Positions 10,922 to 14,646 of a stretch of 64,000 nt of DNA are shown here, piece after piece. The translations under genes were made by a program, and so were the position numbers. The stretch spans positions 62,001-126,000 of the forward strand of contig UYFQ01000509.1 in NCBI GenBank assembly GCA_900617105.1, read 5' to 3'. The DNA is from Hydrurus foetidus (lineage: Eukaryota). How positions within the stretch are numbered: position 1 is the stretch's first letter; each line of letters opens with the position of its first letter. The notes beneath the pieces were generated by a model that did not search any database, was not told the DNA's origin, and was given only the letters and a program-made list of their open reading frames with translations.

Positions 10922-13900
10922 TCATAAAAATCGTAACGTGCATTTTTTGTCAGTGAAGTTCTCAATTTGGAATTTAGTTTTCGGACTCGACTTAAACCCA
11001 TGCACCCTAGTGTGTAATAAAATAGAATCGAGATGACACGCTCTCAACGGTTTTGCCAACACACAATCAGCTCCTGCTTCGAGAAATATGTTGACATCAT
11101 CATTGAGCGCGTTGCCAGTCAGACCGAATATTAATCTGTCAAACCCACATTTTCTAATTGCTGTAGTGGCATCTCCTCCATTCTATAACGAAAATGAGAA
11201 CAAGGGGGCAAATACGTATCAAGAAAATCGTCAAAAAAAGTGGAAGAAGTAGAGCAAAAAAATAAATTGGACGATAAATAAGCATTGGTAGGATGATGGG
11301 AATTTAATGCAATTTCAGATTTTGAAGATTTAGATTATAGTAATAGATGGAAATAAAAAAAAAAAGCGTGGGAGGAATAGTGAATAAATGTACTGTATCA
11401 TTAGTTTTCACTTCGATTTCATCCTTGAACAAAAGATAATAGGAGAAATTCCTGTTACACGGAGACTAGCAGTCATACGTTCGTACGTACCATGATAGGC
11501 ATAGTGTAGTCCATGAAAATGAAGTCATAAGTGTTTCCTCGTTCTTGAATGAGTTTCAAAGCTTCCAGACCGTTCTCCGCAATATCGCAGGGAATGTTCC
11601 GTCCTCTCAGTAGCATGGACAATATCTTGTTGTTCGAAGGCGTGTCTGAGAAAAGGAGTCAGAGAGATGGTGGGATAATATTATCATTTTCATTTTGCCA
11701 GTTGGTAATATTTGGTGTAAAAAGAAGAAGAAGAAGAAGAAGAGGAGGGGTTGGAAGCAAGAAGAAAAGAAAAACGATGTAGTGATGTTAGATTCAAAAG
11801 GAATAGTATAAAATAGAAATAAAAAAGTTAAAAGCCATAAAAAATACTCATAGAAAAAAACGTTGGTAGATGCGAATAGCAGAAGAAAAAGGAAATTTTC
11901 GCCGCAAATGCAATACTATTACTGACAAAAAAAAAGTGAAATTACAGTACAAAACAGATTGAATTATTGTATGAAAAAAAAATTACGTATAAAGGACAAA
12001 AAGGGAAGAAGGAATAAAATGTGAAGACTCACCGTCCACGACTAAATATTTTCTGATAGGTGTAGTAGCGTCGATTGGTGACTCTAAGTCTTGAGAATTG
12101 TGCAATAATCGGTCAGATGTGTTGTTGACCATCTTTAATAGATCGGCTGTTCTTTGTTGTCCTGGAGTGGCGATATCGAATGATATTCGGAATCCAAAAG
12201 TGCTCCCCACTCCCAAGGTACTCTCAACTATAACATGACCGCCATGTAACTTTATGATTTCATTTGCTAATACAAGCCATAATCCGGTGCCTCTTCCTTG
12301 CTCCGAATAATCTGGCCGGATTTGGCTGTAAGGTCGCATAAGTCCGTTAAGATCTTCCCGTGAAATTCCCTCACCAACATCAACAACTCGCACTTCAACA
12401 TGACAGACTTGCGAAGTCACAGAAGATTTTCTCGCTGTGTGTATAGCACTGGGATTTTTAAGCGGATCCAATTTTGGTGAAAAATTAGCACCGATTTTGG
12501 ATTTTTTGATGTCGGATGCCCCACTTACTATTTCACCGAAATAAGGTGAATTATTAATTCCAGCAGTAGCAACCGATCCTTTTCGCGAAGTTAAGTTTGC
12601 CACAGTTTTTGTATTTGTCAGATTTGATTTGTATTCGCGATTGGGATTAAAATTTTCACTTCTTCTTTCACTTCTTCTTTCACTTCTTTTTTCATTTTTC
12701 TTTTCATTTTCCGTTTCATTTTTATTTTCATTTTGAGTTTGCATTATAACTTTTGAGGACATCACTGAACACTTTGGTTTTGAAATGATATTCAAAACTC
12801 GGTGTACTCTGCTGCTTGGAAAGGGAATATCAGAAAATTTCTTGGTCATTTTGATTTTGACAACTGAGAGTGGCGAAGAGAGCTTGACGGCATTATCTAA
12901 AAAACTCATCAAAACGTTTTGAATTCGCAATCTGTCACCTATCAGTAGTGGAGTTACTTCCTCTTTGAATTCGTCACATTCACTCACATCTAATTCGAGA
13001 TGTAAGTGTTTTTGCATGACACCTCCACTAACTGCTGTGATCGCGTCAGAAATCACATTTTCCATATGAAACGGTTTCTTGAATATCTCCATTGCACCTT
13101 CCTCAATTTCATGGACAAATAGCACGTCCGTTAGAGTCTTATTTATAAATGTTGTCGCGCCATTCATCATGCTCAGTGCCTCCTTCCACTCTTCTTTGTT
13201 GTCACCTCCATTATTGACACATGACATGAAAGAATATCAGAAAAAGGAAATGATGTAATATCAGGTATTGCTATCTCGGAACAATGCAACATTTACTAGC
13301 ATTGATTGGATCAATATTCATATTGATGTGCATGTATGAATTTTGTTACATTGTATACAATAGATGTAACCAATCAACATACTTCTCTAGCGTGACCCAG
13401 GGGTTCTTTGATTTGGGTATCAGCAAAACACACACAGATTATTTCTCACAATGGATACGTCATATAAAAGCATAGCTTTTTACTAATCAACTCTAATACA
13501 AGGTTAAGACCACCATTCAATGAAACAAAAACAGTACACACACAAATTTCGAGAAATATTGTGTGTGAAAGTATCTGCGTGTTGACGTTTTCTGCTGTCT
13601 ATTTGTCGGTTGATTAAAATAAATGAAGTACACATTAATACACGAGAGTTGATCTTACCTCCGGCCTCAATAATTGCCATGCCCATGGTAATCGTGTTCA
13701 GGGGTATTCTTAACTCGTGGAAAACATAGCGTAAGAAGGTTCGTCTTGTTTCGTTTACCATCGATTCCGCATCCCTTCTGCATCGGATGTGTTCGGTTAC
13801 ACTAATCTGCTCCTCTATCAAAGCCCCTACGAAAAGAAGTTTGGCTGCCACACTCAATAGTACGAATGCCACATTTAATTGATCACGGTCCAATTTCTCG

Positions 13901-14646
13901 TAGTATGCGAATAAATATACGATTGGAAATGCTGGGAATATTATGTATATCAGGCGAAGCAGTGAGACTTTCTTCGTAGCTGTAACCAAATCAGCGTCTT
14001 TCTTCTTCGCATTGTCGTTGCTATTAAGGCTCCCTCCTCCAATTTCAATGCTGCGGACAACTAAGTATGACACGACAAGTGCCACACAGCCGATCACGAA
14101 CAAGAACACTCCCACAGCTTGATTTTCAAAGCTGAAATTCATAACGGCGCCGCTAAAAACTGCTATAGAAAGACAAGCTATCACAATGTAGTCGTGTAGA
14201 GACAAACGAACTTTATCCTCAACAGCGACAGCGATGTAAGCCATGAGCGGAACACAAGTCACCCATTCACTCCATTGGGCAGCTGATGATTCTACGCCAA
14301 GAACATCTTTGCAAACTCCGCCGTGATCAATGGAATACGTAAGAAGTGATGAGGATCCAGCAATGACCCCGACGGTCATTCCAGCCATGTAATACACACC
14401 CTTTTCACAGCGCCCAGTAAAAAGCGATTGGCACCAACAACAGTACAGCTTATACGCTTGCTGAATTGTGGAAGTTACGAAGCTAAATCCTGCAGCAAAA
14501 TAGTAGTACTTTGTCCAAGTTGCGAAGGGAGTTCCATTGGAACATATGGACATGTAACCAGTCAACGCTTGTAGGATAATGTACGAAAGCAGCACTGACG
14601 CAAGGACATACACTCCTTGCCGACTAAGCAAAGATGTCCCCGGCAT
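10922..14646 (-). CDS. Histidine-kinase rhodopsin: microbial rhodopsin (8 TM) + HisKA + HATPase_c + receiver domain, about 858 aa
   Basis: Exons 14646-13659, 13205-12033, 11645-11491 and 11182-10922 total 2577 nt in frame. Rhodopsin motifs: helix C QWSEWVTCVPLM, helix F FPAFPIVY, helix G LSVAAKLLF (Lys at 13840-13842). Kinase motifs: H-box FLRYVFHELRIPLN, N-box LDNAVK, G1 DVGEGI, G2 GRGTGLWL. Receiver: YLVVDD..FIFMDYTMPIMNG..GLTGNA..LAKP. Confidence 0.88.

Follow-up and report, generated by a model that had tools for sequence, protein, structure and literature searches.

A spliced Hydrurus foetidus gene for a fusion protein of rhodopsin-type membrane domain, histidine kinase and receiver

The DNA described here (hereafter the window) is a stretch of 64,000 nucleotides of Hydrurus foetidus (assembly GCA_900617105.1, contig UYFQ01000509.1, positions 62,001 to 126,000). 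Its minus strand carries, at positions 10,922 to 14,646, a gene whose four exons join in frame into 858 codons and a stop, as a preliminary description made from the sequence had proposed. The product places an N-terminal membrane domain ahead of a histidine kinase and a receiver, and the evidence given below supports this domain as a much diverged type-1 rhodopsin with eight transmembrane helices (8-TM) and a lysine in helix G. On balance we consider it likely that this membrane protein binds retinal, that light sets the phosphorylation of its own receiver and that the signal then passes to a separate partner.

Gene structure and transcription

The gene is real, spliced and transcribed. Its three introns are all of the GT-AG type (Table 1), and stranded RNA reads from two runs (X8 and X9) map only in the orientation of a minus-strand transcript, cover all of the exons and leave zero depth in the bins lying wholly within introns. 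The two runs, from each of which about 6% was read, represent a single sample; with the data set that best matches the window they have only the species label in common, and they show scattered site differences from the window. The joint at intron 2 is crossed by 8 and 15 reads in the two runs, that at intron 3 by 2 and 3 reads and one contig (X1), and that at intron 1 by no more than 2 reads (X8) plus one contig (X2), so that all three introns are seen in RNA, the first thinly. No read or contig extends across the whole gene. Intron 1 ends at 13206–13208 with GAG, an odd acceptor, and six letters fit on either side of the joint. Two AAG acceptors 12 and 15 nt downstream, which would also keep the frame, are disfavoured, as the RNA joint of 453 nt supports position 13206. 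Within exon 2, a short GAA-rich repeat (12654–12734) attracts reads of other transcripts and raises the depth there. Sequences matching the gene were also found in freshwater and lake metatranscriptomes.

The histidine and the receiver aspartate pointed out in the preliminary description are indeed present, as His310 and Asp766, and the chain stops 42 residues after the receiver lysine, where about 40 had been counted.

Table 1. Position of the gene, its parts and its neighbours in the window
Feature	Position	Strand	Remarks
Exon 1	13659..14646	-	Start codon, 8-TM rhodopsin domain, linker helix, first half of HisKA
Rhodopsin domain, residues 6–288	13783..14631	-	TM0 and seven core helices, with a β-hairpin between core helices 2 and 3 (model and Rh-PDE match)
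Cys35	14542..14544	-	TM0–TM1 loop; 91% of 104 rows; predicted disulfide partner of Cys112
Cys112	14311..14313	-	Hairpin motif G-G-x-C-x-D; 92% of 132 rows
Gln124	14275..14277	-	Arg82 position; Gln 89, Ile 25, Arg 6 of 148 rows
Glu127	14266..14268	-	Asp85 position; likely sole counterion
Ser265	13852..13854	-	Asp212 position, without second counterion; Ser 64, Gly 24, Asn 17, Asp 6 of 115 rows
Lys269	13840..13842	-	Aligns with the Schiff-base lysine of rhodopsins
His310	13717..13719	-	HisKA phospho-acceptor, 41 residues past Lys269
Intron 1	13206..13658	-	453 nt, GT-AG, unusual GAG acceptor; splits HisKA
Exon 2	12033..13205	-	Second HisKA helix, HATPase with long insert, first receiver strand; RNA-covered
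Asn434, N box	12892..12894	-	Kept
Low-complexity charged insert, about 140 residues	12409..12831	-	Between N box and G1 box; sequence-based, limits approximate
G1 box D-x-G-x-G	12367..12381	-	Intact
G2 box	12274..12291	-	Trp639 (12279–12277) replaces the third glycine
Intron 2	11646..12032	-	387 nt, GT-AG, within the receiver acidic pair; position appears common to the family
Exon 3	11491..11645	-	First half of receiver, including Asp766 (11511–11509)
Intron 3	11183..11490	-	308 nt, GT-AG
Exon 4	10922..11182	-	Second half of receiver (Thr794, Lys816), 42-residue tail, stop; without output domain
Protein kinase	64..2805	-	Unrelated eukaryotic neighbour
MFS transporter	7029..8336	+	Unrelated eukaryotic neighbour
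Ribosomal protein S4	24543..25439	-	Unrelated eukaryotic neighbour
Sodium/calcium exchanger	27705..31131	-	Na_Ca_ex matches; EF-hand-like stretch between the halves
Ricin-type lectin-repeat protein	36149..37000	+	Unrelated eukaryotic neighbour
Second kinase	57472..63197	-	Unrelated eukaryotic neighbour

The membrane domain and its putative retinal pocket

A search through all of 1.84 billion representatives gave 262 relatives at E ≤ 0.001, and the family counts below refer to the 150 of these that were among the matches listed. A Bac_rhodopsin match at E ≤ 0.001 is found in 44 of the 150 (32 of 90 and 12 of 60). Compared with the sequences of solved structures, a family profile made from 48 sequences, picked as short, mostly kinase-free rows, matched 54 at E ≤ 1, with microbial rhodopsins on top, a best value of 1e-08 and the lysine in register. 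The model of the domain, calculated with a 127-row alignment as input, has eight long helices, a predicted local distance difference test score (pLDDT) of 93.8 and a predicted template-modelling score of 0.92. Its best realigned structural match is the 8-TM Rh-PDE (PDB entry 7cj3; Z = 24.1, root-mean-square deviation 3.1, 256 aligned residues, model residues 8–283), compared with a Z of 22.9 or less for 7-TM rhodopsins, and every match listed by Foldseek is a rhodopsin. The first helix of the model (residues 6–31) corresponds to TM0: the alignment with Rh-PDE begins at residue 8, those with 7-TM rhodopsins near residues 37–44. The rhodopsin-type N-terminal domain with TM0 that had been expected is thus borne out by the model, and the three motifs cited for it (QWSEWVTCVP, FPAFPIVY and SVAAK) do occur in the order claimed. 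The eight hydrophobic segments that had been counted are recovered as eight helices by the alignment-based model, but not by hydropathy alone, which misses the helix at about 43–77 and shows some of the others only at a low threshold. The assignment to the rhodopsins is made because the family profile, the 44 Bac_rhodopsin matches and the fold point the same way; a shared fold is by itself no proof of function.

Taken alone, the membrane domain of the window gives no Pfam Bac_rhodopsin match and, in a single-sequence search of the solved structures, no rhodopsin match. Pfam therefore recovers the predicted architecture in part, with HATPase_c (E = 1.4e-15) and Response_reg (E = 9.4e-05) in place and HisKA weak (E = 0.034). 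A word-index search of longer proteins with the membrane domain returned no rhodopsin among 1568 candidates, and the profile form of this search found one relative. In the Atlas, Bac_rhodopsin clusters came up at 0.91; as the recognition value fell short of the threshold, they count as a lead only, and a second query brought up HisKA clusters only. The fold calculated from the single sequence was poor (pLDDT 42.5) and was not used. One may then ask whether neighbouring frames have been joined artefactually, or whether an unrelated helical bundle has been taken for a rhodopsin, as the silence of Pfam and of the single-sequence search, the poor single-sequence model and the odd, thinly covered acceptor of intron 1 could suggest. 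This explanation is very improbable and largely refuted: the rhodopsin domain and His310 lie within a single exon, all three joints are present in RNA, relatives from transcriptomes (for example P0022, P0032 and P0079) hold all of the domains in a single chain, and the fold match with Rh-PDE is high.

The register of the pocket was taken from the family-profile alignments with solved rhodopsins, and gapped rows are excluded from the residue counts. Pocket positions are numbered as in bacteriorhodopsin. At 20–49% overall identity, the family conserves a pocket Trp (145 of 147 rows), a pocket Pro (145 of 147), the Lys (107 of 118) and the Glu at the Asp85 position (137 of 148). The window protein deviates from characterised rhodopsins at the Arg82 (Gln), Asp212 (Ser), Trp182 (Phe) and Tyr185 (Phe) positions; the Thr89 position is occupied by Cys131 and is variable in the family. 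In published work, Arg 3.42 is conserved in every characterised rhodopsin cluster except one and Asp 7.46 is replaced solely in alveolate channelrhodopsins and heliorhodopsins (PMC13739731), and the tabulated modular rhodopsins carry Asp, Asn or Glu at position 212 (PMC7693036). The signature of the described histidine-kinase rhodopsin (HKR) clades, namely Arg 3.42 with Asp, Asn or Glu 7.46, is absent from the window protein, which has Gln124 and Ser265 at these places; judged by this signature, the family would therefore fall outside the described HKR clades.

Equivalents of Cys35 and Cys112 co-occur in 86 of the 97 rows spanning both places, which suggests an extracellular disulfide between the two. 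Such a bond would be consistent with a topology in which both termini are inside. The disulfide-tied extracellular cap so predicted could also serve as a ligand site, and the domain might be a rhodopsin-derived sensor that needs no light and answers instead to chemical, pH or membrane stimuli, whether or not it carries retinal. In favour of this reading, the pocket has substitutions at four canonical positions, the lysine is absent from 11 of 118 rows, and a link to ammonium chemotaxis has been reported for COP5/HKR1 of Chlamydomonas (PMC11621555). We nevertheless find a light-independent sensor unlikely, as no residues of the family are better conserved than the Lys, Glu, Trp and Pro of the pocket and characterised HKRs without Asp85, Asp96 and Asp212 remain light-responsive (Cop6; PMC7693036).

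Kinase, receiver and a proposed mechanism

The kinase keeps the His310–Glu311 pair, both the Asn and the Lys of the N box, an intact G1 box and the first two glycines of the G2 box, and the receiver residues are complete (the acidic pair Asp720–Asp721, Asp766, Thr794 and Lys816). The HisKA match is weak in the window because an intron splits HisKA, and it is clear in relatives. Helix G extends in the model to residue 288, toward His310, and the spacing of 41 residues from the lysine to the histidine, found in 38 of 73 rows with the window included, is as expected for a coupling helix. No cyclase match was found in the window protein with Pfam, and the tail beyond the receiver is short.

The G2 box is non-canonical at its third glycine. 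Among the 66 rows of at least 450 residues that were aligned, 10 are gapped at this position, and the remaining 56 relatives include 43 with Gly and 4 with Trp (P0003, P0006, P0013 and P0157). A sequencing error behind Trp639 was rejected: the four relatives share the residue, and the X2 lake contig (12191–12362) has four differences from the window, none of them in the Trp639 codon, which shows that the residue is real. In a midpoint-rooted family tree (122 of 151 rows, family members only, no outgroup, P0157 left out), the Trp-bearers lie near one another under a node of 0.83 support that also contains the Gly-bearer P0119, and a single origin of the Trp is therefore not established. Double mutation of the first two G2 glycines abolishes autophosphorylation in EnvZ, ArcB, EvgS and BarA (PMC4734776), and the third sits where the main chain of WalK binds the ATP α-phosphate (PMC5633905); the literature covered yielded no test of the third glycine.

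The mechanism that we propose starts from the splicing, the domain order, the modelled fold, Lys269, His310 and Asp766. Retinal would be bound to Lys269 through a Schiff base whose only counterion is Glu127, and isomerisation of the retinal would shift helix G, which may continue helically toward His310 at the conserved distance. A dimeric DHp would then switch the autophosphorylation of His310, probably off in the light by analogy with 2c-Cyclop, and Asp766 would receive the phosphate from His310 and relay it to a separate protein, either an HPt or a binding partner. A light-inhibited phosphorelay of this kind is the mechanism described for HKRs (PMC12558739, PMC8006352). With its non-canonical ATP site, the window copy may have low activity.

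Several findings weigh against this light-controlled phosphorelay. Besides the thin RNA evidence for intron 1 and the four substituted pocket positions, these are Trp639, in the stretch that binds the α-phosphate in WalK, the long insert that splits the ATPase domain, and a non-canonical F box. Shorter inserts occur at the equivalent place in P0013 and P0003. Moreover, degenerate kinases are common in the family: the His is kept in 53 of 66 rows, and 44 of 61 have the N-box Asn. Among the four relatives with the Trp, three have lost this Asn and two the second G1 glycine; it is because of this loss and of Trp639 that the kinase activity of the window copy is uncertain.

The same residues bear on the main alternative, which we regard as less likely, namely that the protein is a light sensor with a dead or nearly dead kinase. 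It would then pair with active paralogues into heterodimers and modulate them, contributing pigment, His310 and receiver, or serve as a phosphate sink. Trp639 keeps company with lost kinase motifs in the relatives and is no error, degenerate kinases are frequent in the family (RGS-bearing members among them), chytrid rhodopsin-cyclases function only as heterodimers (PMC8815786), and Cop5 may have a kinase that does not function (PMC8006352). However, the window protein differs from the Trp-bearing relatives in having kept the His–Glu pair, the Asn and Lys of the N box, an entire G1 box, two glycines of the G2 box and the receiver, and the part played by the third glycine is one on which no published test was found. 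As for a phosphatase, its activity needs a Thr or Asn four residues after the His, and in the window protein this residue is Ile, which speaks against the phosphatase form of this alternative.

Relatives, known systems and genomic surroundings

The receiver-containing architecture of the proposed phosphorelay recurs among the 150 relatives, with HATPase_c in 48 and a receiver in 26 (E thresholds 0.01 and 0.001); none of the 150 has a PAS match and one has a cyclase match (P0090). Of the receiver-bearing relatives, 24 of 26 align through the receiver Lys column and all end 16–63 residues later, so the lack of an output domain is typical of the family. Among the 27 HATPase-bearing rows without a receiver match, 16 end right after the first receiver strand, which is the position of intron 2 in the window. 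Gene callers and catalogues miss the architecture because their models stop there, in keeping with the earlier expectation that automated annotation would overlook it. Species names, looked up for 24 members, are Mallomonas marina (P0030) and M. annulata (P0032 and P0037). All three species-named relatives are thus Mallomonas, which fits the stramenopile genome that had been suspected; they are 31–32% identical to the window protein, and closer relatives exist. Together with the occurrence of the gene in freshwater and lake metatranscriptomes, they make a chrysophyte or synurophyte host likely. Pattern searches of metagenome and viral contigs, which detect close relatives only, found no relative.

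Two departures from the common plan were observed. P0030 and P0033 carry an N-terminal RGS domain before the rhodopsin and a decayed kinase that has lost its His and ATP motifs; from their sequences they are possibly light-controlled G-protein regulators. For a rhodopsin–RGS fusion, the available literature turned up only the LOV-RGS helmchromes. P0090 (745 residues), which lacks a kinase, has a class III cyclase (E = 2.3e-58) fused straight onto the rhodopsin and ends in a receiver-like tail; it possibly represents a separate origin of a rhodopsin-cyclase.

The cyclase-less rhodopsin–kinase–receiver architecture is already known. Ostreococcus Ot-HKR (OtRh1), Micromonas MpuRh1/2 and Guillardia GtRh4-8 are, like the window protein, rhodopsin–HisK–RR proteins without cyclase and with the retinal lysine (PMC7693036), the Guillardia HKRs being covered in PMC7714340 as well. 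The Ostreococcus proteins share the Glu at the Asp85 position. The divergent, cyclase-less HKR of the preliminary description thus stands as regards architecture and divergence, but the lack of a cyclase is not new. The window family differs from these systems in its residues and its hosts: 88 of 115 rows have Ser or Gly at position 212, where the modular rhodopsins of PMC7693036 have Asp, Asn or Glu; Gln or Ile mostly replaces the Arg 3.42 that the characterised HKR clusters keep (PMC13739731); and the G2 box of the window protein carries a Trp. The hosts of these systems are green algae and cryptophytes, whereas the named hosts of the window family are Mallomonas.

The 2c-Cyclop proteins (Cop6/Vop6) and HKR1/Cop5 of Chlamydomonas and Volvox have the same 8-TM opsin with cytosolic ends, DHp, CA and response regulator (PMC8006352). 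The window protein, in contrast to 2c-Cyclop, has no guanylyl cyclase after the receiver, and the sole cyclase of the family (P0090) directly follows the rhodopsin. The protein has the architecture of an HKR, with a reservation as to its ATP site, but it is no 2c-Cyclop and does not carry the residues typical of the described clades. With Salpingoeca rosetta Rh-PDE (PDB entries 7cj3 and 7d7q), the best fold match with TM0 included, it shares the Glu at the Asp85 position, although the identity is 12%, the output is a kinase–receiver instead of a phosphodiesterase, and Rh-PDE retains the Asp at 212.

The single counterion of heliorhodopsins, Glu 3.45 with Ser 7.46 (PMC13739731), is shared by the window protein (Glu127 and Ser265). 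Yet its only strands in the model (111–113 and 119–121) lie between core helices 2 and 3 and not 1 and 2, TM0 and the C-terminal kinase imply the type-1 orientation, the best fold matches are type-1, and no heliorhodopsin is named among the best 50 fold matches shown. The uncharacterised cluster 5 of PMC13739731 also lacks the conserved 7.46 counterion, and its source data (MMETSP and metagenomes) are those in which members of the window family occur. Cluster 5 could be the window family; the comparison is by description only, and the text available names neither host nor kinase fusion.

We found no description of a rhodopsin-kinase of chrysophytes or other ochrophytes in literature from which subscription papers are mostly missing, and the table rows available from a eukaryote-wide kinase survey include no chrysophyte (PMC6324907). 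On its sequences, the lineage is apparently new, large and undescribed. The preliminary description had not covered the Gly-to-Trp replacement in the G2 box, the missing counterparts of Arg82 and Asp212 or how large the family is. More tentatively, and as a possibility short of even chances, golden algae may possess a large, independently assembled family of 8-TM rhodopsins with a single-counterion, arginine-less and disulfide-capped pocket and new photochemistry, in which the sensor is wired to active kinases, pseudokinases, RGS domains and a cyclase, and subunits such as the window protein join in heterodimers to form a multi-colour light-signalling network of a kind not known from stramenopiles. 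A large family missed by Pfam in most members and cut by gene callers would be an overlooked class of photoreceptors in a major group of lake plankton. A pocket without the Arg82 and Asp212 equivalents lends itself to testing what determines the colour and protonation of retinal, and the compact single-chain rhodopsin–kinase–receiver, together with the cyclase and RGS variants of the family, provides candidate optogenetic parts.

Around the gene, the 13 window frames scanned, which cover part of the window, include no HPt and no retinal-synthesis family; the neighbours recognised are listed in Table 1. Upstream of the gene, on the same strand, lie cysteine-rich exons (16393–16992) that have no Pfam match and presumably resemble a PLAC8-type protein.

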